A stretch of 64,000 nt of DNA from Blasia pusilla (GCA_050084515.1 CM114271.1:20956001-21020000), one strand, 5' to 3'; counted from the first letter of the stretch, positions 1 to 45,600 are shown. The notes: generated by a model not told the origin, from the sequence alone. A program made the numbers and translations.

Positions 1-737
1 TCACCAACGTAGGTAAGGCTGCCCTCAACTCCCCCACCCTATTGGTCATGGCCAACGTTGGTCTATCATCCCGTGTCACCACCTACGATCGACGCCCTGA
101 GCCCAAAATAGCATCCATTGTGAGATGTGGTGCTCTCTGGACTCCATCGTATGCTCGACTGAGTACCTCTGATGGTATCAGGTTTGTCCACCACAATCGT
201 GGATGATGAGCACGTGATCCAACTCTCGCCGCATCTAATAACACAGTAGGTCCCAACTAGGACCTCATCTGATACACATTCGTCATTACACGTGCACGAG
301 TGTCTCCCAACAATGACACGTTCTCCAAGATGTAGGTTGGAGAACATGTCTGACTCTCCTGCAAGTGTTGTACTACTCGTAGCATCTCCCAAAACATCCA
401 TGAACTCGGATCCTGCAATCCAAATCCTCAGTCAGCTGATGAATGACCCTGACATAGCCATCCAGCAATCACCAAATGAATGGTGCCAACTCTATCCAGA
501 TCCTGCGCCCCCACCAAAGAGATGTCGGCGGGTAGTGTATGCTGATATCCCCGTACTGCAGATACCGGAAACAACTCAGGGTACCTCTGGACCAATCGCG
601 CCACGTGACGTAATGATACTCGCCACGCGGTCTCATCTCTCTCCACATAAAGGTACTGATGCACCCTTATGCCCGCCTGCAATACTGCAGCCAATCCGGT
701 GCGAATCCCTCCGAAGAGATCTAACACCCTAACACCC
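1..737 (-). pseudogene. DNMT3-like methyltransferase domain of outer element (partial)
   Basis: VRVLDLFGGIRTGL, IHLVIAGWLCQGHS (PC changed to LC), YILENV (~334-317), LDAARVGSRAHHPRLWWTNL (~239-180). Confidence 0.88.
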
Positions 738-1032
738 TTCTCTGGGCACTGCCACACAACGGGTGTGGTGTCCAGTGGGGTCAACGTCTCCACTCCAAGA
801 GCCCGATCGCCACGTGACTCTCGCTGCTCCGGGATAAAAACATGACTCCACGCCTACCTCACGAGGTCGTCGGCACTCCTCTGTAGCTCTCGAGTCGTAC
901 CCCACAATGGTGAAGAGGTCTCGCCAACATGGGAAGAGACACCCGCCATGGCTTGTCTCTCCGTGGGACTATCCGCCAGGGACATCCTCCGCATGTGCGT
1001 TCCCCTCCAACAACTCTCCTGGTCCGCTAACA

Positions 1033-3308
1033 CTACCTGTGAAATCCGCCAACGTGGTCATTGACTCGCCTCGTGATCGACCACCTCGTCCCGCAAACTG
1101 CACGGGTAACTGACTCATCTAGCCGATAAGCAACGGTCTCCTCCCACAAGTCTAGGATGAATCCTAGAGGATATAACACTATACTCCCCACCAACACATC
1201 GTACGACTCAGCTGGTGTCGTAATCGCACGTGTGTGCACCATAGCACTATCCGTCGCATGCTCTGGCTGGACTCTCACAACTTTCTCCTGTCGAGTCATA
1301 TACTGCATGGGTGACACGCCCCCAATTGAGTTCCGTATCAGGAAGGGACAAGGCTCAATATCGGCCTTCCGTAACCCCAAGGCTAAACACGCCGCCTTCC
1401 CTAACATCAAGGGTTGCGCTCCCGAATCAAGTAGGACGCGCTGCAGGTGGTATATTGTCCTCGTTGGATTAACCAAGTGAAATACTCCAGCTCGGTTATC
1501 CAGTAACACTACTCCAAATGTCACCACTGCTCACTCTATGGCCGGTCAAGCTAGCATATCTACCAACTTGGCCGCCGCCGCATGCCATGACTATGTGGGG
1601 AACGTCCCGAGCACCGGCTCTGAGGGCAAGTCCACCACATCCTCAACTACCTCTGAACAAGAAGCAATCATCTCTCCACGCTCACACAACGTGGCGGCCA
1701 GCCGGAACACCTCAATTGGTCGCCAACTCTATGGCGGAAAATAGTGGAGTCTGACTCACTCTGGTGGCCACCTCCAACACTATGGTCGACACTGACTCCA
1801 CTCGAGCCGGCGTAGGAGTTGTCACTCCAACTCCTCGTGACGTCGACGTAGGTGCTTGAGCTGTAGGCACCGCTGGTTGTCGAGGCACCATCGATGGTGT
1901 GTGTAGTGCCTCGGACAATGTGAATGACTGTGGAACCCTGGCGTGCCGCCCATCCGTCCTCTCTGGTGGGTCAATCTCAACTCCACCTCTCGGTGCCTCT
2001 CGCAACACCCCGAGTCACCACTGCAGCTGCCTCAACCTCGGCTGCACTACACATAAACCCTGTACTGGTGAGATCCTCACCGGGGTCAGGGTAAGAGGTA
2101 GAAGTTGAAGTCACACTAGCTACTCGCAGCTCCGTGCCTTCCCTAAGCTGCATCATCGTCATGGCATCAATCCTCTGCTCCAACAGATCGATGCGTGAGA
2201 GAAGTGTCGGCTCTGGTGCTCCTGCTCCATCTCCTCTGGCTGGTGGTGGTCCTCTACCGCTACGTCTAGGAAGGACTCCCCGACCTCCTCCAGGATGACC
2301 GGCCCCAGGCCCTCGGCCTACCTTTGGACATGCCTCTCGGCGAAGGTCAAAACACCTATCCCTAGTGTGACCATATCTGTGGCAATAGTCACACTGGTGC
2401 TGTGGTGGGGCCATCCTCTATGGCTCCTTAGCAATCGGAGGCGCTCGTGGTCCTCTCCCATGCTGTGGATAGTCTCTCTGCCTATGGGCCCCTCCACACG
2501 TCCAACAAGACCACATCGATCCCTGTTGGGCAACATATGTAGGTACGGGTCGTTGCCTCATAGGCTCACGGTACCCGCCCTGCTCTCTGGGCACACCGGC
2601 CCGCTCTCGTGGTACTGGTGCTCGCTGTGGCACCTGTGGGGTCACCGTCGCTCGTGGACCTGTCGACTCTCGAGAAAATCCAATGGTCACTACCTGCTCC
2701 TCACTCATGTTGAGCTCAATACGCTCAGAAAACTCTAAGGCCAACTTCAATGTGGGCTTCACTGTGTGAATCAACACTGCATCTCGGACTCTCCTCCGTA
2801 GTTCTCGGTCCAGAACCCCGAACCAATACTGGACTGATTGTGTCTCAGTCACTCCATATGTAGCAATGATCAGCCTCCTCATGCGTGTGAATGCCTCTCT
2901 TAGACTCTCACCCGACCATCGCTCAAAATCCCGTAGACTCTTCAGCTTGTCGGTCCGTACGCCCTGGTAGCTCTTCCCCAACTGTCGGAAGAACTCCACA
3001 ATGGGGATGAAGCTGGGTGGCCCTCTACCACCAAAGGTCTTTGCCACATCGCCTATCTCACTGCCCTCCTCTCCATCTAGTCTCCGGGCTGATGGTGTGG
3101 GTCTCTCTCCTCTCACAATCCCATCATATGCCTCGCGACCACTAGTGGACACATACCCTAGAGTCCAATACATCCTCATGGCATCGATCTCTACCAAATA
3201 TAGTGATCAAAACTCCATGTAATCATCCATCGGAGAACCCTCCAAGTGCTGGAACAACCCCTTCCATGCCATGAAAGGGTTGAACCGTATCGGGGTCGAT
3301 ATCTCTTG
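1033..3308 (-). pseudogene. Gag (C-terminal part) and protease of outer element
   Basis: ORFs 2418-3197, 1977-2414 (CDYCHRYGHTRDRC) and 1033-1527 (VLLDSGAQ), with stops and frameshifts between them. Confidence 0.85.
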
Positions 3309-3446
3309 TGTCGTGCGCATACATATCGCTACACAACATACATCGCTGGTCACATCTACACCATACAACACCGATCTTCCCCACACACGGGTTGATCCAC
3401 ACATGTACAAAAATCAACTCATACATATACATGGAGATCACTCAAC
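3309..3446 (-). repeat. Terminal repeat A, outermost 3' copy (138 bp), ending in CA
   Basis: Direct repeat of 3928-4065. It joins B at 3446/3447 with no spacer and is followed by the TSD. Confidence 0.93.
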
Positions 3447-3925
3447 AAAAATAAAGAGTAGTAAAAACGGCACACCGGGCCTAAAACTCCACTCCTCAAT
3501 CTACATCGGCATATCGAGCCTCGTCCACCCTGTGCTATCAAGGAATCCGGACGCTAGCACCCTAGTCCTAGCTCACACACATACAAGGGAGGTGCTCCAA
3601 CGGCCCAACATGAGAAAGATGGCTTAGGAAAGCCATCTTCCTCTCTTATATAGGTTGGGAAGAGCCAAAAGGCTCAAACCCTAGAAATAGCCCTTCCCTT
3701 GATAACCTGCGCGCACAGGTTACCAGAGGCAGGTGACCTGGTCAACAAGTCACATGGCTATAAAAGACCTCAACATAAAAGTCGTCAGAAACAACGTTCC
3801 TGACGCAATGGACCTATCCTCAACCTCATCCGACACTGTGGGACAAAGTTACACTCAAGATAGTCCGCTGGCTCCTACGCCCTATCCACGATAGATCTCA
3901 GCCTATCGGTTACTCAGATGTGACA
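3447..3925 (-). repeat. Terminal repeat B, 3' copy of inner element (479 bp)
   Basis: Direct repeat of 12137-12613, sandwiched between two A repeats. Confidence 0.93.
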
Positions 3926-3927
3926 GT

Positions 3928-4065
3928 TGTCGTGCGCAAACATATCGCTACACAACATACATCGCTGGTCACATCTACACCACACAACACCGATCTTCCC
4001 CACACACGGGTCGATCCACACATGTACAAAAATCAACTCATACATATACATGGAGATCACTCAAC
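3928..4065 (-). repeat. Terminal repeat A, copy adjacent to the PPT (138 bp)
   Basis: + strand tgtcgtgcgc...gatcactcaac. Three substitutions relative to 3309-3446. Separated from B by a 2-bp spacer (3926-3927). Confidence 0.93.
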
Positions 4066-4075
4066 TGCCCCCCTA
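4066..4075 (-). other. Polypurine tract-like motif (TAGGGGGGCA)
   Basis: G-run about 70 nt after the pol stop codon, directly abutting repeat A. Confidence 0.7.
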
Positions 4076-4141
4076 GCTGGCAGTTGGATCCCCCTAACTC
4101 CAGATAGAAAATATCACATCTCTCTAACATGACCTACTACC

Positions 4142-4282
4142 CTATACACATCTCGGACACACCCATCGTCCCGTGGGAACCACATCAAGAGGGGGGGTCA
4201 GACATGACATATGCCACCCTCGAGAACAACCATCACATACCAACATGGTGGCTGCACCCCTCGCATATCCGCACAACATACA
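4142..4282 (-). CDS. PHD finger at the C-terminus of the integrase/pol
   Basis: CMLC-x11-CDGC-x4-HMSC-LTPPLDVVPTGRW-VCPRC, an intact C4HC3 pattern, followed by a stop codon. Confidence 0.92.
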   Translation of the reverse strand, partial: CMLCGYARGAATMLVCDGCSRGWHMSCLTPPLDVVPTGRWVCPRCV

Positions 4283-4499
4283 CCTCAAGCCTGGAGGTAC
4301 CACTGCCAAGCTTGGATCCACCGTCCCATCTACGTTCGGAAGATGACATGGCGCACAATTGCGCACATGATCCTTCCAAACCATACCATCTCGTCCCTCC
4401 AACATGAGGACTCCGGTCGGTAATACTTCGCGCACACGTAGGATAGTGCGCTCTGCAGTGACATCTAGCGTCGTGGGTGCCGCCTGCTGTAAATACACG

Positions 4500-5400
4500 T
4501 AATCTCCAGGATGAAACCTCCTAATCCCTGGAGGATAACCTCCTCCATGAATGGTCGCTACCTCAATGTATCTCTATCTCGGGCAATAGCTAAGTTCTCA
4601 AAGGCCATAGGCATAACTCTATGAAAAACTTCTGCCCTCTAAGAACATGCTTGCACCCACACATCTGGATCATCACGATCTAACACCTCCGCCATGTCAC
4701 GTCGAATCGCTGCATGTAACTCTGGCTCTCTCCCAAAGAGCAAAAAGTACGGTGAAAATGACGCCAAGGATGCTGCCGACTAAAGCGATAACCCATAGCC
4801 AACCATGGCAATCAGAGGTCCCACTCCCTCAATCGCCCCTGCTGCAAGCCATACTTGCGCAATCCTCTCTTCACCGTCTGTACCACTCTCTCCACCAATC
4901 CATCCGCCTCAGGATGATCCCTGGACGTGGTGCGGTGATCTATCGGCGCTGATCACACAAGGCCTGAAACTCTCCCTCGAACTCGGTACTGGTCGGTCAA
5001 CACCTCCGCGGTGCACCAAAGTGACTAAGCACACGATCTAGAAACGCATAAGCTTTTTCCTCGCCGCTTTGTCGGTAGTGCCACCAACTCTATCCACTTG
5101 GAGAAATGCTCCACCATGACCAACACGTACCTATGATGACGCCCTGTCAATGGCAAAGGTCCCGCAAAGTCTAAACTCCACCGATAACCTAAACCCATAA
5201 TCTCAAAAGGATGTAATTGCGGAGTGGGAGCATTGAAGGATGCTCGCACTCTGTCACATACCATACATCTGGCCACAAACTGTTGTACCCTAGTATGCAT
5301 GCCGCGCCACCAATACTGAACCTGGAGTAAGCTGTAAGTACGCTTTACTCCAAAATGTCCCAACTCCTCATCGGCATGTCGCACTACACGTGCTCGCTGG
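4500..5400 (-). pseudogene. DDE integrase (HHCC zinc-binding domain + rve core), frameshifted
   Basis: GHFGVKRTY...YWWRGM...CMVCDR, followed by RWSLDFAGPLP...YVLVMVEHFSKWIE. Confidence 0.9.
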
Positions 5401-5749
5401 GAAGGATGAGGTACCACTTGTATCCTACCATCTCCCCATACCCGCAAAATGTGAGTCCCCTCCCACCTGAACCTCTTGGCTCTCTGTAAGATCCAATCCC
5501 GCTCCCTAGCACTCATTGAACTCGCAATGACGCCAGTGCGCAAGAAGTCCACAACCTCCACGTCGTCATGGATATCACGACCACCTGTCGCCTCCTCACT
5601 AACCTCCGGATCCAAAGACTCATCATCCAACCCCACCACTCGAGTCATCACTGTGGCGACCGCCATAGTCAACCAACAAAGATAGGCGGATGCATGCCAA
5701 CCGGGCACCATCTCCTCATCACTCTCTCGTGCCATTGAGCTCGTGGACG

Positions 5750-6120
5750 TCTCTCGACTCGGACATGGGTTACGACTCGGCCCATCCGCATCCTGGTTCA
5801 GCCGACTGGGCCTATGAACCACCTCAAACTCATACTCTGTAGTAATAGAGCCCACCTGGTAAGCTTTCCATAAGCTTGTCGGACTCCATCAACCACTTCA
5901 ACGGTGATGATCGTGATAAGTGTGAAAGGGTTGCCAAATAAATAGCACCTAAAATATGCCACGGCCCCACCGCAGCCAAGCACTCTCCCTCAAGGAGTCA
6001 GATGCCGCCCTCTGCAATGTTGTTCGATCGCTCGCGTAAGCCACAACGAACTCCCTCTCCTCGTCATCCCTCCGAGTAAGCACCGCTCCTAGACCCAACA
6101 TGCTCCAACCGTATGTAATG
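5750..6120 (-). pseudogene. RNase H domain, frameshifted
   Basis: GLGAVLT...VVAYAS, AVAYFRCYLFGNPFTLIT, KLTRWALLLQ, EYEFEVVHRP...NQDADG.SR. Confidence 0.88.
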
Positions 6121-6379
6121 GAATGGGCGACCCCTAACCGGTCTCTCAAAATGGGTGAGGCGTCAACTTTGTCCTTGAGCTCTGAAATGCTCGCCTCGAT
6201 CATCTCCCCACAACCACACGATCAAGTTTTGTCAACAAGGTCAAAGAACGCACTAAAACCCTTGACATACAAGTCGATAGAAGTTCGCCATCAAGAAATG
6301 CTCGGACTGACTCACATCCAGAGGGCGTGGAATCTGCGCAGAATAGCCTCTACCTTGCCAAATCTGCTGAACGCCTAAC

Positions 6380-7050
6380 CCACTCGGGTATATGGTGTGT
6401 CCCAAGTACTCAATCTGCTCTTGAAAGAATCTGCACTTGCACGGATGTAACCGGTCCATGAAACGCAATCGCTGAAACACCTCCTCCAAGTGTCGCTCAT
6501 GCTCCTCAACCGTGGAATCAAGATAAGAATATCATCTATGTAACATCGCAAAATCTAAGCCAGCCAAAATCCTATCCATCACTGAAACTCCAGCGAGCGC
6601 GTTCTTCAACCCAAATGGTAAGAACCGCCATTGATACAAGCAATCTCTCCCGAACTGATCTATCCCCCGAGAATGTTGTCTTCTCCTGGCCTCCAACCTG
6701 ATAGGAGGCGATGATAGCCAGGACGGAGATCTAAATCTTGAAGATCTTTGCATGCCCTACGCATCAAAGATCTCCTCAGAGTAGGCATGGCATACCGATC
6801 TGACCTCGTCTGTCGGTTGATAGGACGGTAATCTCCACACATCCGCCTATCCGTCCAATTGCCATACATATCCTTCTTTGCCGGCATGACTGTGGCAGAT
6901 GCATACTCCCCATGTGACAACTCCACAAGTCCTGCCTCCAACAAGTCCTGACTCCTGCTCTGAATCAAGGCTCGCTCCATATCAGAATACCTGTAGGATC
7001 GACAAAAGATCGGCGTATCACTAGCCAACTCAATCCGTATCCCGGGACCC
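6380..7050 (-). pseudogene. Reverse transcriptase (Ty3/Gypsy type), frameshifted
   Basis: RMCGDYRPINRQT, DLRPGYH, LPFGLKNA, YIDDIL (~6543-6526), KCRFFQEQIEYLGH. Confidence 0.92.
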
Positions 7051-7500
7051 TTCAACGTACCCAAGTCTCTCATATCAAGGCAAAACAACCGACATGCCCT
7101 CTCGAGAAACCTATGAACTCACCGTCGCTCTCCTCCTATCAACTTGAGACCTATCACAGGCTCCCAAGTCTCCATCATGATCTCACTCGGAGAGGACGCA
7201 ACCTCCGGCTTTGGTTGCTATGTAGCAACCCTAGCCACCTCCGCAACAGCCACTCCACTATGACCTCCTACACCATGCTCCACATCCGAAAAATGAACAT
7301 GTGCTACTCTAGCCGCCTTCGCACTCTCTGCTCAAACGACGTCCCAAGAAGTCCATGGGTGCCTATCTCTCCTCATCTTGCCTGACCAATGCCTGTGACA
7401 GACCTCAGAGGCGTGGTCCAACTCGTGGACGTGGCGGCATGGATGACACTCGCATCCATCTCGCTTCGAGCCATACCTAGGTGACTATCCATGTGAGACA

Positions 7501-8408
7501 GTTGAGGTCCATCGCCCCTAACACTGTCTCCGTGATGCCTCAGTCATCCCTGGCACCGCCGTAGTACCGGTAGTGAACCCCATGGCGCGCTCACGCTCAT
7601 ATGCTGTAGGCTCCTCCAATGCGCCGGTCACCTCATCCCAAATCATGCGTGGCCCTCCATGACGAAAAGCATGGGATGCTGGGAAGCTCACCAACGTAGG
7701 TAAGGCTGCCCTCAACTCCCCCACCCTATTGGTCATGGCCAACGGTGGTCTATCATCGCGTGTCACCACTTGAGATCGACGCCCGAGTCCAAAATAGCAT
7801 CCACCGTGAGATGTGGTGCTCGACTCCATCATGCTTGACTCAGTACCTCGATGGTATCAGGTTTGTCCACCACGATCGTGGGACGATGGGCACGTGACCC
7901 AACTCGCTGCATCTAACAACACGGTCCCGGTCCCAACCAGGACTCACCGATGTACACTCGTCATCACATGTGCACAGTATCTCCCAACAACGGCACGTTC
8001 TCCAAAATGTAGGTTGGAGAACATATCCGACTCTCTGCAAGTGTCGTACTACTCGCAAACATCTCCCAAAACATCCACGACCTCGATCGTGCAATCCAAA
8101 TCCTCGGCCGGTTGATGAATGACCGACATGGCCATCCAAAGCAATCACCAAATGAATGGTGCCAACTCTATCAGATCGTGCGCCCCACCAAAGATATGTC
8201 GGCGGGTAGCGTATGCTGGTATCCCCGTACTGCAGATACCGACAACAACTCAGGATACCTCTGGACCAATCTCGCCACGTGATGTAATGATACTCGCCGC
8301 GCGGTCTCATCTCTCTCCACATAAAGGTACTGATGCACCCGTATGCCCCCCTGCAATACTGCAGCCAATCCGGTGCTAATCCCTCCAAAGAGATCTAACA
8401 CCCTAACA
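7501..8408 (-). pseudogene. C5 cytosine DNA methyltransferase domain (DNMT3-like) within pol of inner element, frameshifted
   Basis: Motifs occur in canonical order: I VRVLDLFGGISTG; II YVERD; IV GWPC (PC at 8131-8126); VI YILENV (~8011-7994); VIII-like DAA..G..AHRP..WWTNL; IX ERERAMGF; X RRQ.LG.AMD. Confidence 0.88.
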
Positions 8409-8829
8409 CCCTCCTCTAGGCACTGCCACACAACAGGTGTGGTATCTAGTGGGGTCATCGTCTCCACTCCAAGAGCCCGATCGCCATGTGACTCTCGCTG
8501 CTCTGGGATAAAAACATGACTCCACGCCTGCCTCACGAGGTCGTCGGCACTCCTCTGTAGCTCTCGAGTCGTACCCCATAATGGTGAAGAGGCATTGCTA
8601 ACATGGGAAGAGACACCCGCCATGGCCTGTCTCTCCGTGGGACTATCCGCTACTGGGACATCCTCCGCATGTGCGTTCCCCTCCAACAACTCTCCTGGCC
8701 AGCTAACACTACCTATGAAAGTCGCCAACGTGGTCATAGACTCGCCTCGTGATCGACCATCTCGTCCCGCTAACTGCACGGGTAACTGACTCATCCGACC
8801 GTCACCTGACCGCCATCCTGGCCGATAAG

Positions 8830-9150
8830 CAACGGTCTCCTCCCAGAAGTCAAGGATACATCCTAGGGGATATAACACTATACTCCCCACCAACACATCG
8901 TACGACTCAGCTGATGTCGTAATCGCACGTGAACGCACCATAGCACTATCCGTCGCATGCTTTGGCTGGACTCTCACAACAATCTCCTGTCGAGTCATAT
9001 ACTGAGTGGGTGATACGCCCCCAATCGAGGTCTGTATCGGAAGGGACAAGGCTCAATGTCGGCCTTCCGTAGCCCCAACGCTAAACACGCCGCCTTCCCT
9101 AACATCAAGGGTTGCGCTCCCGAATCAAGTAGGACGCGCTGCGGGTAGTA
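8830..9150 (-). pseudogene. Retropepsin-like aspartic protease domain of inner element
   Basis: RVLLDSGAQPLMLG (D-S-G active site) and downstream YDVLVG motif. One frameshift near 9045. Confidence 0.85.
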
Positions 9151-9949
9151 AACTATCCCCGTCGGACTAACCAAGCAAAATACTCCAGCTCGGTTATCAG
9201 TAACACTACTCCAAATGTCACCACTGCTCACTCTATGGCCGGTCGAGCTAGCATATCTACCAACTTGGCCGCCGCCGCATGCCATGACTCTGTGGGGAAC
9301 GTCCCGAGCACCGGCTCTGAGGGCAAGTCCACCACATCCTCAACTACCTCTGAACAAGAAGCAATCATCTCTCCACGCTCACACAACGTGGCGGCCAGCC
9401 GGAACACCTCAATTGGTCCAACTTCCAACGTCGCCAACTCTATGGCGGAAAATAGTGGAGTCTGACTCACTCTGGTGGCCACCTCCAACACTATGGTCGA
9501 CATTGACTCCACTCGAGCCGGCGTAGGAGTTGTCACTCCAACTCCTCGTGACGTCGACGTAGGTGCTTGAGCTGTAGGCACCGCTGGTTGTCGAGGCACC
9601 ATCGATGGTGTGTGTAGTGCCTCGGACAATGTGAATGACTGTGGAACCCTGGCGTGCCGCCCATCCGCCTCTCTCTGGTGGGTCAATCTCAACTCCACCT
9701 CTCGGTGCCTCTCGCAACACCCCGAGTCACCACTGCAGCTGCCTCAACCTCGGCTGCACTACACATAAACCCTGTACTGGTGAGATCCTCACCGGGGTCA
9801 GGGTAAGAGGTAGAAGTTGAAGTCACACTAGCTGCTCGCAGCTCCGTGCCTTCCCTAAGCTGCATCATCGTCATGGCAGCAATCCTCTGCTCCAACTGAT
9901 CGATGCGTGAGAGAAGAGCCGGCTCTGGTGCTCCTGCTCCATCTCCTCT

Positions 9950-11250
9950 GGCTGGTGGTGGTCCTCTACCACCACGTCTAGGAAGAACTCCCCGACCTCC
10001 TCCAAGACGACCGCCCCCAGGCCCTCGGCCTACCTCTGGACGTGCCCCTCGGCGAAGGTCAAAACATCTATCCCTAGTGTGACCATATCTGTGGCAATGG
10101 TCACACTGGTGTTGTGGTGGGGCCATCCTCTGTGGCTCTTGCGCAATCGGAGGCGCTGGTGGTCCTCTCCCATGCTGTGGATAGTCTCTCTGCCTATGGG
10201 CCCCTCCACACGTCCAACAAGACCACATCGGTCCGTGTTGGGCAACATATGTAGGTGCGGGTGGTTGCCTCATAGGCTCACGGTACCCGCCCTGGTCTCT
10301 AGGCACACTGGCCCGCTCCCGTGGTACTGGTGCTCGCTGTGGCACCGGTGGGGTCACCGCCGCTCGTGGACCCGTCGACTCTCGTGAAAATCCAGCGGTC
10401 ACTACCTGCTCCTCACTCATACGCTCAGACAACTCAAAGACCACCTTCAATGTGGGCTTCGCTGTGTGAATCAGCACCGCATCTCGGACTCTCCTCCGTA
10501 GTTCTCGGTCCGAACCAGACCAATCTTTGGACTAAGCTGCGCCTCGTCACTCCAACGTAGCAATGATCAGCCTCCTCATGCGTGTGAAGGCCTCTCTCGA
10601 CTCTCACCCGATCGTCGCTGAAAATCCTCAGAGACTCTTCAACTTGTCGGTGCGTACACCCTGGTAGCTCTTCCCCAACCGTCGGAAGAACTTCACCTTT
10701 GTGGGGTGTCAAGCAGGTGGACCTCTACCACCAGAGGTCTCGCCACATCGCTGTGTCCTTTGTCCTCCTCTCTATCTAGTCTCCGGGCTGATGGTGTGGG
10801 TCTCTCTCCTCTCACAATCCTAATCATATGCCTCGCGACCACTAGTGGACACATACCCGGAGCCCAAAACATCCTCCAGGCATCGATCTCTTTGAATATA
10901 GTGATCAAAACTCCATGTAGTCATCCATCGGAGGACCCTCCAAATCTTTGGAACAACCCCTTCCATGCCATGAAAGGGTTGAACCGTGTCGGGTTCAGAT
11001 ATCTCTGGAAGTCGCACCATGTGTCGAACTCCTGGATGAAATCATCTAAGTCGATGGTGCCCATCGCACCGAGAAACGACGCATGCCCCGATGGCCCATG
11101 TCGCCCATCTCCCGCCAAGTACTATGTCTCTCTCATTTCACGATCTCGTCACCAGACCGGTGTCTAGTGATGACGATCGATCCACGGATGGATGTCGAGG
11201 TAGCTCCTAATTGGTAACCCCTCGATATCTCACTCCACTCCGTGTCACAC
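9950..11250 (-). pseudogene. gag: Gag of inner element (frameshifted) with two zinc knuckles
   Basis: Fragments IDLDDFIQEFDTWCDFQ, CWTCGGAHRQRDY (degenerate knuckle) and CDHCHRYGHTRDRC (CCHC), spread over several frames. Boundaries approximate. Confidence 0.8.
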
Positions 11251-12123
11251 CACTACCACTGCTCGCACTGCCCCGTTCTTCCGAACCCTGGAAGAACGCC
11301 GTGATGACAAACCCTGTCTCACCCACTCAAGCACTCAGACTCACCGAAAGTCTCCCACACGCCTCACTAGCTCACCTATGCTAACATCAATCCCATGATG
11401 ACATACCCGCCTCACGACGCTCAACACTCGGGCTCACCATGAGCCTCCCAACCGACTCACCTAACCTAGCGACACACTCTCGGGTCATACACGCGACCCT
11501 ACTTCGGCAACCGTCGTATATCCACCAACATGCTACACATGAAAAGAATCTACACTCGTCACCATCTAGCACCAGCTACTACCCGATACCCAACACTCTC
11601 AATCACACACGACAAGTGCGAGAAAAGGGACTCGAATGGGTAACCTGATCACGCCCTCCAACCTCCTGCACCGTCAATATGCACTCCTCCACATGATATG
11701 ACAATCTCCGCCACATAACACTCCCCTCGACCAACACGCCGATCCTCCCACAATCAACAGATCACGGACAACCCGTCGGCATCATGCACACTGCCCCTCC
11801 ATCGTAAACTCTCGCAACGCCCTATGCGCGCCTCACAAACAACATGTCATGCAAACCCCTCTGTCCAACTTGTCGATCACTCAACACGTCGACATCCTCC
11901 CTGCCCTCACGTTGACCATGCGCACCGCGTTCGCCGGACCGACCTCGTCCGTCCTACCACGTTCGCTACGACTGTCCGACCGCCGTCGGTGCTACCACGT
12001 CGGAGAGGGGGAAAGAAATTGGACCGCGGCCCTATGCGGGCCCCTTGGGCCCTAAATGCGGGGGAACGCTTTAGCAACTCGCTTGCCTACCTGCAAACAA
12101 CGAATTCCCACCAGCCCCTTGAC

Positions 12124-12136
12124 ATCTTTCTCATGT
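12124..12136 (-). other. Putative self-priming primer-binding site (ACATGAGAAAGAT)
   Basis: Lies immediately inside repeat B, lacks the TGG of tRNA-primed PBSs, and is the exact reverse complement of 12298-12310. The same site is present at 13836-13848. Confidence 0.75.
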
Positions 12137-12613
12137 AAAAATAAAGAGTAGTAAAAACGGCACACCCGGCCTAAAACTCCACTCCTCAATCTACATCGGC
12201 ATATCGAGCCTCGTCCACCTTGTGCTATCAAGGAATCCGGACGCTAGCACCCTAGTCCTAGCTCACACACATACAAGGGAGGTGCTCCAACGGCCCAACA
12301 TGAGAAAGATGGCTTAGGAAAGCCATCTTCCTCTCTTATATAGGTTGGGAAGAGCCAAAAGGCTCAAACCCTAGAAATAGCCCTTCCTTGGTAACTGCGC
12401 AAGACAGGTTACCAAAGGCAGTGACCTGGTCAACAAGTCACCCGGCTGTAAAAGACCTCAACATGAAAGTCGTCAGAAACAACGTTCCTGATGCAATGGA
12501 CCTATCCTTAACCTCATCCGACACTGTGGGACAAAGTTACACTCAAGATAGTCCGTTGGCTCCTACGCCCTATCCACGATAGATCTCAGCCTATCGGTTA
12601 CTCAGATGTGACA
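12137..12613 (-). repeat. Terminal repeat B, 5' end of inner element (477 bp; contains TATA and predicted TSS)
   Basis: Near-identical to 3447-3925 (roughly 15-20 differences counted by eye) and similar to 13849-14327. Starts TGTCAC on the minus strand. Confidence 0.93.
12310..12342 (-). promoter_or_regulatory. LTR promoter: TATATAA box and predicted transcription start (C|A)
   Basis: Minus-strand TATATAA at 12342-12336, with a YR initiator 32 nt downstream (12310). Conserved in all three B copies. Confidence 0.65.
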
Positions 12614-13848
12614 CCTGGAAGTTGCACCATGTGTCAAACTCCTGGATAAAATCATCTAAGTTGATGGTGCCCACTGCACCCGAGAAACGACGCATGCCTT
12701 GATGGCCCATGTCGTCCATCTCTTGCCAAGTACTACTGTCTCTGTCTGCGATCTCGTCACCAGACCCAATGTCTAGTGATGACGATCTAGCCACGGATGG
12801 ATGTCGAGGTAGCTCCTCACTGGTAACCCCTCGGTATCTCACTCCACTCCGTGTCACACCACTACCACTACTAGCACTACCCCGCTCTTCCGAACCCTGG
12901 AAGAACGCCGTGATGACAAACCCTGTCTCACCCGCTCAAGCACTCAGACTCACGAAGAGTCTCCCACACTCCTCACTAGCTCACCTATGCTAATGTCAAT
13001 CCCGTGATGACACATCCGGCCTCACGCATACTCAACACTCGGGCTCACCACGAGCCTCCCAACTGACTCACCTAACCTAGCGACACTCTCAGTTCATACA
13101 TGCGACCCCTACGCGGCAACCGCCGTATATCCACCAACATGCTACATATGAACAGAATCTACACTCGTCACCATCGCTGCACCCACCTAGCACCAGCTAC
13201 TACCCGATACCCAACACTCTCAATCACACATGACAAGTGTGGGAAAAGGGACTCGAATGGGTAACCTGATCACAGCCTCCAACCTGCTGCTCCGTCAACA
13301 TGCATTCCCCCATGGGACACGGCAACCTCTACAACACAACACTCTCCTAGACCAACACGTCGATCCTCCCGTCAACAGATGCGGACAACCCGTCGGCATC
13401 ATACGCACTGACCCTCCATCTAAACTCTAAAAAACTTAGTACAAGCCCGCTCAACCACGTAGCGCTCATAACCATGTAAGTAGTTCCACCCGGATAGCCT
13501 GGTCACCACATCCTGAACCCTACCACATTGCCATCCAACCACGTTGATGGGGGGGGCGGCGGCGCACCGTCGCCGTCCGCCCATGCGACCTAAACGCCTG
13601 CTCTTTCTTGACAATCTCGCTGATAAACTCGCTGCCCCACTCTGTACTACACTGTGCCACTGTCCTCAATCCCTGTGCACCACCAAATTCTGAGAAAAAT
13701 GGACAGCGCTTCCGCCCACGGCCTTCTGACCAGAAAAATGAAAAACACCCACAACACACGCGTCTCCAAGGGCTCCCGACCAAGGCAACTTGCTTGCCTA
13801 CTTGCAAACAACGAATTCCCACCAGCCCCCTTGGCATCTTTCTCATGT

Positions 13849-14327
13849 AAAAATAAATAGTAGTAAAAATGGCACACCCGCCCTAAAACTCCACTCCTCA
13901 ATCTACATCGGCATATCGAGCTTCGTCCACCCTGTGCTATCAAGGAATCCGGACGCTAGCACCCTAGTCCTATCTCACACACATACAAGAGAGGTGCTCC
14001 AATGGCCCAACTTGAGAAAGATGGCTTAGGAAAGCCACCTTACTCTCTTATATAGGGTTGAGAAGAGCCAAAAGGCTCTTCCCTAAAAATAGCCCTCCCT
14101 TTGGTAACCTGCGCGCATAGGTTATCAGGGGCGGGTGATCTGGTCAACAAGTCACCCGGCTGTGAAAGACCTCAACATGAGAGTTGTGAGAAACGACGTT
14201 CGTGACACAATGGACCTATCCTCAACCTCATCCGACACCGTGGGACAAAGTTACACTCAAGATAGTCCGCTCGCTCCTACGCCCTATCCACGATAGATCT
14301 CGGCCTATCGGCTACTCAGATGTGACA
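13849..14327 (-). repeat. Terminal repeat B, 5' end of outer element (479 bp)
   Basis: Diverged direct repeat of 12137-12613 with the same boundaries. It is followed by the same PBS-like site (13836-13848) and likewise has no A segment. Confidence 0.9.
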
Positions 14328-14332
14328 GGCTT

Positions 14333-14927
14333 TGTGAGTAGTAGAGGATAGGCTGAGTAGGTCGAGGATGACCCGTTGAGGCCCCTGGAAACCTGAGAGA
14401 GCAGGTTTCCCCTTCGTTTCGGCTCATTTGGAGCCATATTGAAGAACTTAATATTCTAGGTAATTACCATTTTGAGTATATGATCGACTTTCTATTTTTG
14501 GTTAGTGGCCCTTGACCTCCTACATCAGGTCAAGAGTCAAGGAGGTGACTTGGGAGAATAGGTTACCATGGTGAGAGCTTGAGAGAGGGGAGGGGTATAC
14601 CTCAAGGAGAGAGAGCTTGAAAGCTCATTGTCTCTTTGTTGAACCTCTTGGCATGAGGCGACGGAGCTATGGTTCCTTGCCTTGTGAGTGTAACCCAAGC
14701 CTCTCATTAGGAGAGTGGGTTTGGTTTGACATGAGAGAGAGTGCACAACTTTGAGAGCTATGGTGTGAGATGGTGTAGAGAGAGATTGGATCTTACTTTA
14801 TTGGAGATATTTTGGTACTTCTTGCGTCTGTGTATGCATGCCATGAGTTAGCATGGGATACTGTGTGTTTGTGTGTGTGTTCGATGACAGCGATGTATAT
14901 TGTGTAGCGATGTTTATGCGCACGACA
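14333..14927 (+). mobile_element. Solo-LTR-like remnant of a related retroelement family
   Basis: Starts TG and shares gataggctgag with the start of B. Its last ~43 bp (tgacagcgatgtatattgtgtagcgatgtttatgcgcacgaca) match the end of repeat A, ending in CA. No TSD found, so the left boundary is uncertain. Confidence 0.6.
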
Positions 14928-27000: not shown

Positions 27001-29475
27001 ACCGTCGATAAATCATCACTATAAATGATGAAAATCCTTCTCAATTAACTAAGTTAGGACAAAAGAATGTAAATTGTGATCGTCATTAGTCCCCGGATGG
27101 TACAAGCATTCACTAGTACATTTTTCAGGGAGATTTTTTTGTTTGGAAATTTCTAGAATAGAAGATGTAATTCTCCTATTAAAGTGTGTTTATTAATGGA
27201 GTCTCCTAGGTCTAGAGTTGGAAAGGAAAAACATTCTTAATCTCTTCTTCATATTGGCCATGGTGAAAAAAAAATTTAAAAATAAAATGCAAAAGAAAGT
27301 TATACAATAAACTCAAACTTCTTGCTTATTTTTGTAAATGATCTAGATAGACATAGTGGATATATGTCCAACCTCAAGATAATTCCTCTACATTAATGTT
27401 AAGAGAGACAGGTCCAAAGCTAATTAAGGGATGTGTGTGTATAAATCACCATTTGCGATGGATTTTTGTTTTTTGGATTCCATGCATAGTGAGGGATGAG
27501 GTTCTCTCCTTGTCTTTGTGATTATTGGCACTCTTCATGTTTATGCAAGCTACCACTCTCTTTTGTATGTGTAAATGAGAGAATGTAGGTCCTAGAAGTT
27601 TAGTAGTCTCTAGACATACTAGGCTCGATATTTCTCTACACTTGCTATAATAAATAACAGCAAGGATCAATATTTTCCTTACACTTGTAGAGTGATAGGA
27701 TGAAAATGAAAAGTCTTAGCATAAGGTCCCACCAATATGAATGCTAGAAATAGAAAAAAATAGTTGGTTAATTATTTTGGATGAAATATTTCTGGCCACG
27801 AATTTAGGAGTTAAAAAACCTTTCCGAGTTAGATATTTGCAGAAAATCTTGGACGAGAGATGAAGTTGAGAAATAGAGTGGAAGAAGAAAAAGACAACTT
27901 TTCAACGAGAAAGGGATTATAAGGGGTTTATTCGTTTCTAGTATTAGAGGAGGTTTCTCCTTCTCTCCTCGGGAAGAAAGAATGGGCCTTCCTTCGGGGA
28001 TTTAAGAAGAGCTAGTTAACTCCTATTCATTATGAAGGAGAAAGGAATAATATAAGCGTCAATGCGTCATCTTCATCAATAGCCTTTCATCGAGAAATGA
28101 GGTAGACAATGGAAGAAGAGGGAAGGGATAGATGAACAAAGAGAGGGTCCCTTGTCCCCCAAGTCTTTCCACCTAAGGCCATCCTCGTTGAAACCCAAAA
28201 TGAGTTTAATAAAGTTCGGTCTTTGGGGGAGAGGCGTGAAACAAGTGAGGAAGGAGAAAATTAATCCGTTTGGCGTAGGGTTTGAAAAATTATGTCTTCG
28301 TTATGAAATAATATTTTTTAATAATTTAATTTGATGTGATAGAAAATACAGAAACATACGACATCTTACATTCACCCCAAACTAATAACTTACTTTTAGC
28401 AACTAGAAATTTTCTATTCTTTTTGAATTTTCACAAAGCACATGGGAACTTATTTAAGAGCTTTTCTATTTTCTAGCTCTCAAAACATGATCATCATTAG
28501 AAAAGAAAATTATTTGAAAACTTAAATAAGTTTTATTATCTAGTTTTTGAGATAAATTGATACAGAAATTCATGTCAAATGGAGAATACATGAGAATAGT
28601 AGTGCATTACCTTCTTGAATTTGCCATTAACCCTCGTTGGATTTAAAGAAACCAATTACTTGGCCCTCATTTGTTAAGTTAACACTGTCTTCTTTTTTTC
28701 CTCTCCATCTAATCTATGTTTTACAATTAATTTATCTCTCTTTCAGCCCCCGAAGAGTTTTTTTTTCCATTTTCAAGCATAAAATCATTTAAAATATTAA
28801 TATTTTTATAAATGAAAATAGAAAAAAAAAAACTTCAAAAGAAATAATATGACTATGAGAAACATGATTAAGAAAAAACTTCAAAAGAAATAATATGAGT
28901 ATTTGCTTCCAGCTTTTATGACCTTGAAGATTTGTATCTTTGCTTCTATCTCCAATTACTCTGGTTATCTGGTTATAAAACCATAAAAAGTTGGACGAAA
29001 TCACGTTAGTGGCCGTAAATTCAAACTGGTTTAATAAACATGATTTTTAAAAATAGAAAAAAATTCAAAAAGAAATAAGAAATCATGGAAATATGAGCTT
29101 ACCACGGCTAACTCTGGCTTTTTTCGGTTCTTACGAGCAGCGGAGGACATCAGGAAAGAAGCAAGAAAGACGCAAAAGGAGTGGTTGTGCGGTATTCACC
29201 CCCCTTCTCTCTTCCTTTCTTTCTTGGAGAGACCTCCCGAGAACTTGTCAGCTGCAGCCGCTGCAGTGCCCCGTCGGTTATTAGGATTCCCATCTCTGCA
29301 ATTCTATTCCAGAGGATGCGCTGCGCTTGGTGCCGTGGTCTGCTGCCGAGGTCGAGCGGAGGTGGTGTGCATCGAATGCGGAGTCGACTGAGTTGAAGAC
29401 GGACATCGGATCGGCGGGGGCTGCAAACGAGATTGTTGTTGCGTTGGGTGCCGGGAGCGCTTTCGGGCATCGGCT

Positions 29476-30072
29476 ATGGCCGCAGTGGTTTCTGCTTTTC
29501 CCAGCACGACTCCGACGCCCTTGCGCGAAAGCGTGCTGCAGCGGTCGCCCGCGTCGAGAAGGGTGAGGTGCGGAGCGCGGTGCGGTCCTGTGAGCGAAGA
29601 GGCTGGGAAGGTCGGGGAGGTTTTGGGTGGAAGCTTGTACGGGTTGTTAGGCGTGGAGCAGAACGTGAGCCTTACTGATATCAAGAGCGCTTACAGGCAG
29701 ATGGCGCGCCGCTACCATCCGGATGTGTGCGCGCCTTCCCGGCGAGAGGAGTGCACCCGATTGTTTTTGCAGGTGCAAGATGCGTATGAGATTTTGTCCG
29801 ATCCTGAGCAGAGGGCGGCGTATGACTATCATTTGATGCATCCGCTGAGCGCGAATGCTCTGGGATTCGGAAGGATGGTCAGGAACAAGAGGAGAGAAAG
29901 AGAGAATGCTTCGGATGCCTGGAGACTGCAGTGGCAGGCTCAGCTGTCGAGAATTGGAATGAGGGCACGAACGGAGCAGAACCAGACTGAAGGAGAGTCG
30001 TGGGGTGCGCGCATGCGCCGGCGCTCGTCGCAGGAGAGGCAGTCCGGATCATGCGATGCTGGGAAGCTTTGA
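29476..30072 (+). CDS. Small type-C J-domain (DnaJ) protein, probably plastid-targeted (DnaJ11/DJC-like)
   Basis: 198-aa intronless ORF with an S/R-rich N-terminus, the J domain SLYGLLGV...IKSAYRQMARRYHPD...FLQVQDAYEILSDPEQRAAYD, and a C-terminal WQAQL...SWGARMR segment. Confidence 0.93.
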   Translation: MAAVVSAFPSTTPTPLRESVLQRSPASRRVRCGARCGPVSEEAGKVGEVLGGSLYGLLGVEQNVSLTDIKSAYRQMARRYHPDVCAPSRREECTRLFLQVQDAYEILSDPEQRAAYDYHLMHPLSANALGFGRMVRNKRRERENASDAWRLQWQAQLSRIGMRARTEQNQTEGESWGARMRRRSSQERQSGSCDAGKL

Positions 30073-42600: not shown

Positions 42601-45600
42601 CAAAAATCTTAGTCTATATTCATATAGCTGGGATACCGAGTCACCGACCTGAAGATGAAGAGTACGAGGAGATACATCGAAGGGTGAACCTTGTAAGAGT
42701 GCTCCATGGATAGGAATGCAATCCGGTAAATGTGGAGATGAAAACAGGTACAACTGTCCCATGCAAACTGTATTTGCAATCTCAGAACCCCCATGTGATA
42801 TGTGATCTGCGTCCAGATCTGGATACATACGCCCGTTTGCGAGTCCAATCTCTTGGCAATTGATACCTGCCTCATCGATATCCTTCACTATGTCAGGCAC
42901 GATTTTATCCGAACACTTGATGTTTATTGCATCTTCACTCCCTACACGAGAAGGTCTCCTGTATGTCACATGCTGCACGAGAAAGTGGGAGGGTAAATTG
43001 TCAGAAATAGGACGTGCACATATACGCAGCTCAGTTTTTTCCCCTGGCTCTAAAGTCAGCTCCCCAATAGTTGTATTTGTCGGTGACACGACCTCCAACA
43101 TAACCTGCAGTCATAGCAGTATTGGAATTTAGTCATTGATTAAGAATAGGTGAGGGTGAGTTTTAGCTGTTGAATTTAACAGTCAAATTTTTCATGCAGA
43201 TGTCACTTTAGCTCTACTGCTCCAGTTCTAAGTTCAGGTATTAAATTCTTTTAGTTAGATCTAATTTAAGTAGCTCTAATGTGTTGTGCTGCTTTGTTGT
43301 GCTGTCAAATCCACCAGATGCTTTATTATGATGTGCTATCCACTACACCTACTGTTCTGCTGTACTACTCTGTTGTGCTGTCCTTCCTGATTCATGCTCA
43401 TGGTTTGATGTGGTGTTCATCCTTATCCCATGCGTACTTCCTTCATAGTCTCATCCCTCTACATAAGAGCCCCAAACCCTATAGGATTCCCGTGGACAGT
43501 AACTCACGTCATTCATTCATCCATTCTGTCCCCAGCCTCATTCTCCTCCATCGTATCTTGAGATCGAGATTGGTTCATGCACATCTGACTTGCTAGTGTC
43601 TGGGTTAACCAAGAAGGAAATGTGAAGCTGTACTGCTAAATACTCCTGTCATTGCCTTTGTGTTCTCTAATAAGTTGTTGCTTCAACTTGGAGCAAACAA
43701 TTTGAAAGAGGAGTTCCATAACAGCCCTGTATTCAATCCGTTGTATTCTCTTTCACATGTGAGCAAACTGATTTTATAGATGCACGTTTGCTAATTACTG
43801 GAAGATTCTGTCGAGATCTAATTCCTTTTTTGATTTTGAATTCTTGAAAGTTACATCTGAGAGGAACTGAGTATTGATTTCAACATTCAGGACAGGAACA
43901 CTGTCACACAGAGTTGATGGTCAAGTACTATATACCAATGACTCTGTTTCTTCAGCTTGCTGCAGTTGTAGAGCCACACCCAATGGCTCCAGAGACAAAT
44001 TCTCCACCTGTTGTGGGCATGCAAACACGAACGGTCACTCTTTCATACATGTCCATAACTGTTGATTTATTTCCCCTCAGTTTGAAGGTGAACAAGCCAA
44101 AGAAATAGCCAATCCATCTTTTCATAGTTCATTGAAGTGCACACATACCACAAACTGCGTGATGCAGGGTGGAGCGTTCGGTAGAGGAGGTAATGTAAGA
44201 GGTGGTAACAACAATGTAGACTCTGTCAAGCCCCCCAAGCGAAGAGTGCACACAGTTAATTCCGCTTCGACTACTAGCTCCATCAGGTTGTTGGGATTGT
44301 TGCAATTACGCAGACAAATCTGCCATGTGCAAAGTCCAGCTTCCTTCACATGTTCCAGCTTTGAAGTACATAGAGTGATGCTCAATGTCCTGGAACTCCT
44401 GGCAGGCACATAGCTTCTCTTTTCATTCTCTTGAAATCCCTTGTGCAGCTCCTTCGTGGATATTGAGAAGAATTCTGGAACATCGACTAGCTGATAAACT
44501 AGAATTGCGTCACTAGTATTCTCCACAGTAATCTCAAACTCAACATCCGCCCACCTGTTTGCATATCCAACCTTACCCAGTTCTACATGACGCTTTGCAA
44601 GCTTCCCTCTTGAAACACAGATTGAAGCCATGATATTTAACACTTCCACAGTGTCATGAGCAATATTGACCTGATCAGATGGGTGTGTGGCAAGTAAAAT
44701 GTCTTTACTTCTTCCTGTAGAAGAACTCTGTACTTTTACAAATGTCAGCAATCCTTCAATTTTAGACAATTTACCAGCACTAAGACGATCAATATCTGAC
44801 ACCCACAATCGACCAAGATCCAAGAAAGATACGAAGATTCTGGTTATAGAAAAAGGCTCCACGACAAATCCTCCTCCACAAGGTGCAAGGTTGGTGACGA
44901 GCTCAGACAAATCTCCTCTGATCAACTCCTCATATACCTTGTCCCCAAACTGAGACTTATTATATGCCTCCACAACCTCAATCCCTCCAAGTGTTTCATC
45001 ACGTACTGTAGACATAGCAATCTGAGAGACGTTGGCAGAGTATTCCTCTTTTCTCCCTACTTCATATGCGGCACTGAGGTTGTTCTGTGTATCTACAAGC
45101 ACTGGTAGGTTACTGAAAGGCTGCAAATAAATGCGCTCTTGCAAATGATTTCTGATGACCAGTGAAGAGTGATAAGGACGAAGGTCAGAGATTGAATAAT
45201 CAGAAACCTCTAAGCTCTCCAAAGTAGAGGAGCCAGCTGATATTGTTCGTTTGTGGACTGGTGAGATAAAAACGGTTCCCAGGTCAAGAACAGAATTTGG
45301 TTCCAGCAGCACACCATCTTCACACCCAAAACCTCCGAACCTCTTCACCTGCCTGTCAGTCAATCCATCCGTTTTGCCGAATGATCTGGTCAAACTTGCA
45401 CAAAAGAAATCTCCAGCAGACAGTGTCTTCCGAATTTGTCTACTAACCGCCTGTTCGATTCCTGCTTCATTTGTAGGTGATAATGGTAGAACATGAACAC
45501 TACTTTCTAAATTAGTACTTATTTTTCCGTTCGTAAGCCTAGATTTTTCTGCTGGATGAGAATCTAGACCCGGGAGGGTAAAGGTACTATCTTGCTTGTA

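Follow-up and report, generated by a model that had tools for sequence, protein, structure and literature searches.

The retrotransposon described here occupies positions 3309 to 12613 of a 64,000-nt stretch of Blasia pusilla DNA (GCA_050084515.1 CM114271.1:20956001-21020000), the whole of which is called the window below. It is a dead copy, nested in an older one of its own family, and it belongs to a Ty3/Gypsy lineage that reaches high copy numbers in bryophyte-type plants and carries, in this order, gag, protease (PR), a DNA methyltransferase (DNMT), reverse transcriptase (RT), RNase H (RH), integrase (IN) and a PHD finger. The normal integrated form of this lineage is not a set of genes between two long terminal repeats (LTRs). 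It reads B, primer-binding site (PBS), genes, polypurine tract (PPT), A, x, B, A, where A and B are repeat units and x is a spacer of 2 nt, and this split-repeat structure is neither a product of chance nor an assembly artefact. We consider it rather probable that such a structure results from complementary DNA (cDNA) whose ends are joined, re-cut at an internal palindrome and then inserted by integrase in the ordinary manner.

On the minus strand of the window, the element runs from B1 through the PBS, some 8 kb of coding sequence, the PPT, A1, the dinucleotide AC and B2 to A2 (Table 1). The outer termini are TGTCAC... and ...CGACA, and at the joint between B2 and A2 (3447/3446), which reads ...TATTTTT / GTTGAG..., the last T of B2 passes directly onto A2 with zero bases between. 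In a canonical element two identical, complete LTRs flank the stretch from PBS to PPT; here the 5' end holds B only and the 3' end holds A-x-B-A. The older copy of the same family into which the element is inserted begins likewise with a B (14327-13849, 91.7% identity), directly followed by the same PBS at 13848-13835. A preliminary description of this DNA had given the order B...A-AC-B-A on the minus strand with its coordinates, the TG/CA outer ends, a B-A joint with no base gained or lost, and an outer copy in which B is directly followed by the PBS. All of these are confirmed, and the lack of a 5' A as a family trait is further supported by the relatives described below. Its structural reading also holds: in the genome, this Gypsy element with a DDE integrase is circularly permuted relative to the cDNA that its PBS and PPT predict.

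The limits of that cDNA follow from the two priming sites. The 14 nt after B1 are a perfect reverse complement of B positions 303-316, 31 nt past the TATA box, and the outer copy keeps 11 nt of this complementarity. The relatives have a different PBS, CTCAAAGAACT, which is the complement of GTTCTTTGAG, found about 30 nt after TATAAA; this partner forms the second arm of a hairpin, CTCAAAGAAC-ATA-GTTCTTTGAG. The pairing between PBS and RNA 5' end, and its position, are kept between families while the sequences differ, that is, they covary. The priming mode predicted from this pairing is self-priming of the Tf1/Tcn1 kind, with the RNA 5' end in B. A self-priming PBS fixes the end of U5 at the last base of B, and the conserved PPT fixes the start of U3 at the first base of A. 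Given these two boundaries, the synthesised LTR would be A-x-B and the cDNA tips would be GTTG... and ...TATTTTT (...TTTTCA in the relatives).

In the window the predicted transcription start itself sits in a hairpin (12350-12298, minus strand), which reads GAAGATGGCTT..AAGCCATCTTTC; its first arm repeats the PBS and its second arm is the complement of the PBS. This hairpin may regulate self-priming. A candidate PBS of the tRNA type at TGGTGGGAATTCG, 23 nt after B, was rejected by eye, being too short for a tRNA 3' end and not adjacent to B.

Split repeats in relatives and in raw reads

A protein-profile scan of metagenome contigs yielded 74 loci with 35-50% protein identity, including six pairs that represent the same locus in two samples. 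When A and B of two of these loci were used as queries over all 74, 27 loci matched, and 12 independent 3' ends could be read once the six duplicate pairs had been removed. Four of the 12 show PPT-A-x-B-A followed by flank (L015, L032, L038 and L050), and one shows PPT-A-x-B before being cut by the contig end (L012). Another six show PPT-A and then flank, the short form B-genes-A (L007, L020, L021, L026, L033 and L054), and the last, L055, is rearranged or aberrant. At the other end of the element, the PBS motif directly follows the end of B in 19 loci (17 independent), and among these 5' ends A is never found ahead of B or of the PBS. Ten regular-expression matches to the PPT motif lead into the start of A in nine cases and into the start of B in none, the tenth match being unrelated. 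No canonical LTR arrangement was found among the relatives. Self-comparison of 23 of the 74 loci (all of at least 8 kb) revealed both repeat pairs in only two, and an IUPAC pattern of 24 letters written for the conserved end of A matched nothing in either metagenome or viral contigs.

The relatives have termini of the form T(G/A)TCATG...ACA, and six of the eight in which both ends can be read carry perfect 4-bp target-site duplications (TSDs). The full forms have TCTC, AAGG and AATC, the short forms TGTT and ATTA, and L055 has CACA; one of the remaining two has GGTA/AGTA (three of four bases matching) and the other a damaged 5' end. The TG...CA termini and the TSD of 4-5 bp by which Ty3/Gypsy elements are recognised are therefore present, the duplication being perfect in six of eight relatives and matching at three of four bases in the window. 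The full B-int-A-x-B-A copies (int, internal region), the short B-int-A copies and the 4-bp TSDs that the preliminary description had predicted all occur in independent relatives. It had also named two patterns that would speak against it, a PPT abutting TG and an A abutting the PBS, and no copy shows either.

Two of the full relatives have further direct repeats of 69-76% identity in or beside them (L050 6476-7282 / 10286-11076; L032 824-1543 / 5387-6106). These are probably nested insertions of another repeat, which would account for the 11-kb length of L050. In L055 (13182-13960, the same locus as L035), the coding region stops in RNase H and is followed by an inverted piece of B and by unrelated sequence; next come the portion of B that begins near the RNA start and reaches the end of B, and the PBS. 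This copy looks like an aberrant product of reverse transcription that was nevertheless integrated with a perfect TSD.

For the window's own host, about 1% of each of two raw whole-genome shotgun (WGS) runs was aligned to positions 3150-12800, and the best-supported rows were listed. About 68,000 reads per run align there (68,298 in one run), mostly 90-95% alike, at a depth of about 400-1,400. The boundary between PPT and A1 (4061 and 4066, both showing a majority variant) is spanned by about 900 reads per run, which answers the earlier worry that A1 (3928-4065) might be an artefact. About 1,500 reads per run quit matching exactly at 3309 and enter unlike flanks (agreement 0.34), so that 3309 is a true terminus at many insertion sites. 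A further 1,000 or so per run leave the reference at 3348 for one common sequence, which indicates a larger sub-family that shares only the last 40 nt of A. None of the 15 joints listed, out of a set with 252 further joints, is canonical (the end of A to the PBS, or the PPT to the start of B). Binned depth over B is about 1.5 times that of neighbouring internal sequence, a ratio too dependent on divergence to be used. The family is hugely repeated in its host and its split 3' terminus is not a one-off; its sequence is matched in WGS runs of one organism and in some air metagenomes.

Differences between reference and reads on 3150-12800 (run X17) are mainly C>T, at 800 places, and G>A, at 707 places. 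Such a pattern is expected where methylated cytosines have been deaminated in a repeat that is silenced and carries a DNMT of its own.

The B-A joint and the proposed integration route

The joint between B2 and A2 consists of exactly the predicted cDNA tips in the window, L032 and L050, and is one transition off in L038. Other joints are less tidy. That of L015 contains 19 extra nt, and in L055 the end of B is followed by 11 nt of the PBS, by GCT and by A, this copy keeping remnants of both PBS and PPT. One contig of run X1 passes from B to A via about 9 nt of the PBS and five other letters. These three aberrant joints resemble the outcome of faulty end-joining, and similar faults occur at the 2-LTR junctions of retroviruses. 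The junction of A, x and B is in turn a palindrome, CA-NN-TG. Its spacer is AT in L015 and L050, GC in L038 and L012, and AC in L032 and the window; AT and GC give the perfect palindromes ACA-AT-TGT and ACA-GC-TGT, and in L038 the perfect palindrome extends over 16 nt.

The two ends of the integrated element adjoin each other inside every synthesised LTR, and the extra 3' A can come only from the other tip of the cDNA, which argues that the tips were joined and that the internal palindrome was cut. According to the model that we propose, transcription would start about 30 nt after the TATA box in B1, and the 5' end of the RNA would fold back onto the PBS adjoining B and prime the minus strand, as in Tf1. 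Standard strand transfers and plus-strand priming at the PPT would then produce an LTR of the form A-x-B. The ends of this cDNA would be joined, whether in a 2-LTR circle, end to end or in a template-switched tandem, and this would create the B-A joint. Integrase would ignore the cDNA tips and would cut 3' of each CA in the internal GACA-NN-TGTC palindrome, leaving the usual 2-nt 5' overhangs, and the resulting TGTC...GACA molecule would be inserted with a 4-bp staggered cut. A cut in the LTR on the PBS side would give the replication-competent B-int-A-x-B-A, and the cutting of both palindromes, or the use of a 1-LTR circle, would give B-int-A. Since only the full form has the promoter part of B downstream of the PPT, only this form would regenerate itself, and B-int-A would be a dead end. 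We infer this route from integrated copies; it appears well supported, and it can be tested.

Several observations weigh against this reading. The spacer AC of the window and L032 is not self-complementary; it is one transition away from AT or GC. As processes, the five steps up to and including the cutting of the palindrome are inferred, and the joined or circular cDNA is postulated from integrated copies. Random opening of a free 2-LTR circle should yield both permutations equally often, but the other one, B-A-x-B-PBS-int-A, occurs at 0 of 17 independent 5' ends, against five full forms. The 2-LTR-circle route put forward in the preliminary description is therefore upheld only in part: the joined ends fit it, but a free circle is only one way to a B-A joint. 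The asymmetry could reflect faster loss of the other permutation by B x B recombination, or a joint made by template switching at the right end only. Short B-int-A forms could equally have arisen by A1 x A2 recombination after integration; the cutting of both palindromes, 1-LTR circles and such later recombination could each have produced them and are indistinguishable here. The 4-bp duplication reported earlier for the window copy is in place, but it is not clean, CAGG and CAAG matching at three of four bases. Furthermore, every copy inspected is degenerate, with no open frame longer than 957 aa in any of the 74 loci, and the B-PBS, A-x-B and B-A junctions of the window's family are not individually documented among the best-supported read rows.

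The rival that we rank first shares the architecture and the integration at the palindrome, and differs in that the B-A joint does not come from the ligation of a free 2-LTR circle. Either reverse transcriptase switches templates end to end at the right end, giving a linear cDNA with tandem LTRs (of the two variants the one we have chiefly in mind), or a 1-LTR circle is maintained as an episome from which, in the manner of pararetroviruses, transcripts longer than one full round are made; integrase would then cut two palindromes of the linear or concatemeric molecule. The absence of the other permutation would be explained in this way, and so would the joint of L055, which resembles the 3' end of a plus-strand strong-stop product (B and PBS) followed by the start of another (PPT remnant and A), and the finding that short forms are as frequent as full ones (6 vs 5). 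However, both processes are conjectural, the precise joints of four of the five full relatives and of the window fit blunt ligation equally well, and an encoded integrase together with TSDs makes a purely episomal life style unnecessary. We regard this rival as a possibility to be kept in mind, though well behind the joining and re-cutting of cDNA ends set out above. The same precise joint in most copies would also be expected if the whole integrated form, A2 included, were copied from an RNA primed at or beyond A2, with the joint simply inherited and the PBS-like complementarity serving some other role such as packaging or translation control. This seems very improbable, since beyond A2 lies host DNA that differs at each site and so offers no fixed primer site, the conserved PPT adjoins A1 and not B, and the joints of L055 and L015 differ in ways typical of newly made joints.

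Integration by a tyrosine recombinase like those of Ngaro, PAT and DIRS, either acting in trans or missed here, is suggested by the repeat topology, which is identical to the A1-int-B1-A2-B2 of Ngaro and PAT (drawn in part from figure legends of PMC5890265). When the window, L050 and L032 were read through in three frames, no tyrosine recombinase (PF00589) was reported at E<=0.001, and domains of a DDE integrase are present. The TG...CA ends and the perfect 4-bp TSDs of six of eight relatives speak in the same direction, as insertion by such a recombinase makes no duplication, and we find this explanation hardly credible. Just as little credence can be given to the idea that the canonical LTR is B-A and that the 5' A was lost and the extra A gained by rearrangement or mis-assembly. 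It is true that B-A looks like a normal LTR, with TGTC...GACA ends and a TATA box inside, and that all copies seen are old and mutated. Yet the same order recurs in two copies in the window and in five independent relatives from another host, A never stands ahead of the 5' B or the PBS, the PPT always adjoins A, the complementarity of the PBS requires that B and PBS be adjacent, and the PPT-A1 boundary is spanned by the roughly 900 reads per run mentioned above. As a general explanation, it is already refuted.

One may go a step further. Integrases of prototype foamy virus (PFV) and human immunodeficiency virus 1 (HIV-1) cleave palindromic LTR-LTR junctions, according to passages of two reports (PMC1180852, PMC1905944). 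In the window lineage, joined-end cDNA may have become obligatory, with the internal CA-NN-TG palindrome as the only attachment sites, cut in the manner of a restriction enzyme before strand transfer; we see an even chance of this.

Coding region, nesting and neighbouring sequence

Table 1. Features of the inner element and of the older copy that it interrupts (positions in the window)
Feature	Position	Strand	Remarks
B1 (5' repeat; U3-like part, TATA, then R/U5)	12137..12613	-	starts TGTCAC, ends TATTTTT
TATA box TATATAA within B1	12336..12342	-	B position 272
Predicted RNA 5' end CATCTTTCTCATGT in B1	12298..12311	-	exact reverse complement of PBS, 31 nt past TATA
Self-priming PBS ACATGAGAAAGATG	12123..12136	-	adjoins last base of B1
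gag (broken), two CCHC-like knuckles	9689..11121	-	translations read by eye; no Pfam match
Protease (LLDSGAQ), then degenerate C5 DNA methyltransferase domain	7518..9339	-	
Reverse transcriptase and RNase H (broken)	5949..7118	-	Pfam RVT_1 and RT_RNaseH_2, both weak
Integrase with H2C2 zinc finger, beginning of DDE core, broken central part and C-terminal module; PHD finger at its end	4142..5888	-	
Polypurine tract AGCTAGGGGGGCA	4066..4078	-	adjoins A1; same motif kept in relatives
A1	3928..4065	-	starts GTTGAG directly after PPT, ends CGACA
Spacer x = AC (2 nt) within GACA-AC-TGTC, the A1 / B2 junction	3926..3927	-	
B2	3447..3925	-	starts TGTCAC; 96.5% identity to B1
A2 (3' terminal repeat)	3309..3446	-	ends CGACA; 138 nt; 97.8% identity to A1
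Target duplication, 5' copy CAGG	12614..12617	-	flank reads ..cttccagg, then TGTCAC
Target duplication, 3' copy CAAG	3305..3308	-	one transition from CAGG
Outer older copy, 5' part (B 14327-13849, PBS, leader), interrupted by inner copy	12615..14328	-	
Outer copy continuation, gag to DNMT region; 3' end beyond window	1..3306	-	90.7% identity to 7688-11006

All reading frames of the window element are broken. In the Pfam search Integrase_H2C2 is clear (54.8 bits, 1.1e-14), as is the PHD finger (5e-11), with RVT_1 and RNase H upstream of the integrase; rve is weak and under its cut-off (19.7 bits, 0.0011). The Pol order PR-RT-RNase H-IN with a DDE integrase, which defines Ty3/Gypsy, is found in the window and in L050. 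In the latter the domains are placed at residues 1392 (DNMT), 2109 (RVT_1), 2356 (RT_RNaseH), 2605 (H2C2), 2676 (rve, 36.9 bits vs a cut-off of 32.6) and 3270 (PHD). L050 and L032, read through in three frames, show RVT_1, RNase H, H2C2, rve and PHD, with a PF00145 (DNA_methylase) match that is weak and under cut-off. No chromodomain was reported by Pfam in the window, L050 or L032, and a PHD finger is present.

The DNMT motifs DLFGGIS, GWPCR, ILENV and ERERAMGF are spread over three frames of the window copy (by eye, 9050-7500). Because these frames are broken, Pfam finds no family in this region, on single open reading frames (ORFs) or on frames read through stops (E up to 1). A 293-aa ORF at 8171-9052 has 26 longer homologues, with identity of up to 55%, most of which are annotated with PF00145 and some of which additionally carry RVT_1, RNase H, PHD or rve. 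The named homologues come from Marchantia polymorpha, Calypogeia fissa and Sphagnum species, and their alignment makes the protease and the DNMT motifs I, IV and VI visible. It is thus from the PF00145 domain of its homologues that the domain in the window is identified, Pfam being silent on the window copy itself. A profile search gave 206 matches, and among the 120 listed the named ones all belong to Marchantia, Calypogeia or Sphagnum; restricted to proteins of 2238-5000 aa, the search returned no match. Judged by these protein likenesses, the window element is a member of a Gypsy+DNMT+PHD lineage of bryophyte-type plants. Motif IV reads GWPCR here (8100-8170, minus strand) vs GWPCQ in the homologues, and the domain is scattered across three frames; this copy's methyltransferase is dead.

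Because the element is inserted in an older member of its own family, the inner copy supplies the sequence of the empty target, which there appears uninterrupted as ..cttccagagatatc. Beyond the outer copy lies a 599-nt unit (14329-14927, plus strand) of a related, divergent family, B'-A'-like and head-to-head with the 5' end of the outer copy at 14328. This unit shares a block near its start and its last 40 nt (..GCGCACGACA) with the inner B-A, and it matches the sequence that about 1,000 reads per run enter at 3348. It may be a solo B-A remnant; it was discarded as a test of TSDs, its left side being occupied by the outer copy. Elsewhere in the window, host-like sequence of about 42% GC is found at 44122-47922 (minus), 49683-50483 (minus) and 29392-30072 (plus). 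It includes a 1266-aa open frame with a weak match to CFAP65 Ig-like domains, another frame with a weak match to Cep192, both being cilium- or centrosome-type proteins, and a further frame with a clear DnaJ domain.

Significance and comparison with known systems

For 40 years linear cDNA has been held to be the only real substrate of integrase, and circles have been held to be dead ends. Cleavage of circle junctions by integrase has been described, in the passages drawn on here, for PFV (PMC1180852) and, in vitro, for HIV-1 (PMC1905944), and its biological role is disputed. The lineage described here is an abundant, clade-wide plant retrotransposon whose genomic structure cannot be produced from the predicted linear cDNA tips, yet which bears all the marks of a DDE element, so that the question of circle-junction integration becomes testable in a natural system. 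If the reading is true, it would provide a natural, fixed version of the long-disputed retroviral pathway of circle-junction integration, and possibly a stepping stone to the circular, terminally redundant replication seen in pararetroviruses. In practical terms, this family, which supplies thousands of reads per 1% of a run, will be mis-annotated by LTR finders built to look for two identical LTRs.

The preliminary description had stated that no Ty3/Gypsy element built this way was known. This is contradicted by KnitGypsy-Dnmt3 of Klebsormidium nitens (de Mendoza et al. 2018), for which the legend of Fig. 4c in PMC5890265 gives a DIRS repeat structure, A-coding-B-A-B, together with Gypsy domains. 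The window lineage resembles that element, as the same legend presents it, in combining a Gypsy-type Pol and a DNMT domain with DIRS-like terminal repeats in a streptophyte host, and differs from it in having bryophyte-type hosts and in ending in a PHD finger. The PBS, PPT, TSD, junction and mechanism given here for the window lineage are absent from the parts of the text of PMC5890265 concerned with KnitGypsy-Dnmt3. No Klebsormidium protein is among the 120 matches listed of 206, and the likeness rests on architecture. Besides PMC5890265, no other description of the mechanism or of such Gypsy elements was found in a search that did not extend to subscription journals, Repbase and supplements. 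The window family therefore represents new hosts for a known but barely described type, and its architecture has been described in print once before. The Gypsy+DNMT+split-repeat type, so far recorded a single time, in a charophyte alga, is extended to liverwort- and moss-type hosts, and what is new is the anatomy of its PBS, PPT, TSD and junction, including a self-priming PBS complementary to B.

Goodwin and Poulter are said to have described, in 2004, retrotransposons with a tyrosine recombinase and split direct repeats. Ngaro, PAT, TOC1 and DIRS encode such a recombinase and make no TSD. The window lineage shares with them the split direct repeat topology, A1-int-B1-A2-B2, and the logic of a joined or circular cDNA, and is set apart by its DDE integrase, TG...CA ends and 4-bp TSDs. 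A second group to be compared is that of Tf1/sushi and the plant Tcn1 clade, the latter with members in early-diverging land plants. The PBS of the window lineage is, as in that group, complementary to the predicted 5' end of its own RNA and not to a tRNA, a trait for which passages of Neumann et al. (2019, PMC6317226) serve as the source. Compared by features and not by a tree, Tf1/sushi and Tcn1 have canonical LTRs and a chromodomain, whereas the window lineage has permuted repeats and a PHD finger.

The closest parallel to the proposed integration step lies in the cleavage of retroviral 2-LTR junctions, as reported in parts of the articles on PFV (PMC1180852) and HIV-1 (PMC1905944), where a palindromic CA...TG is likewise cut internally to give 3'-processed ends. 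In retroviruses, however, this palindrome is confined to the circle, and the route is an accessory or debated one. In the window lineage the palindrome is present in each LTR as synthesised, and its internal cutting seems to be demanded by the genomic structure.

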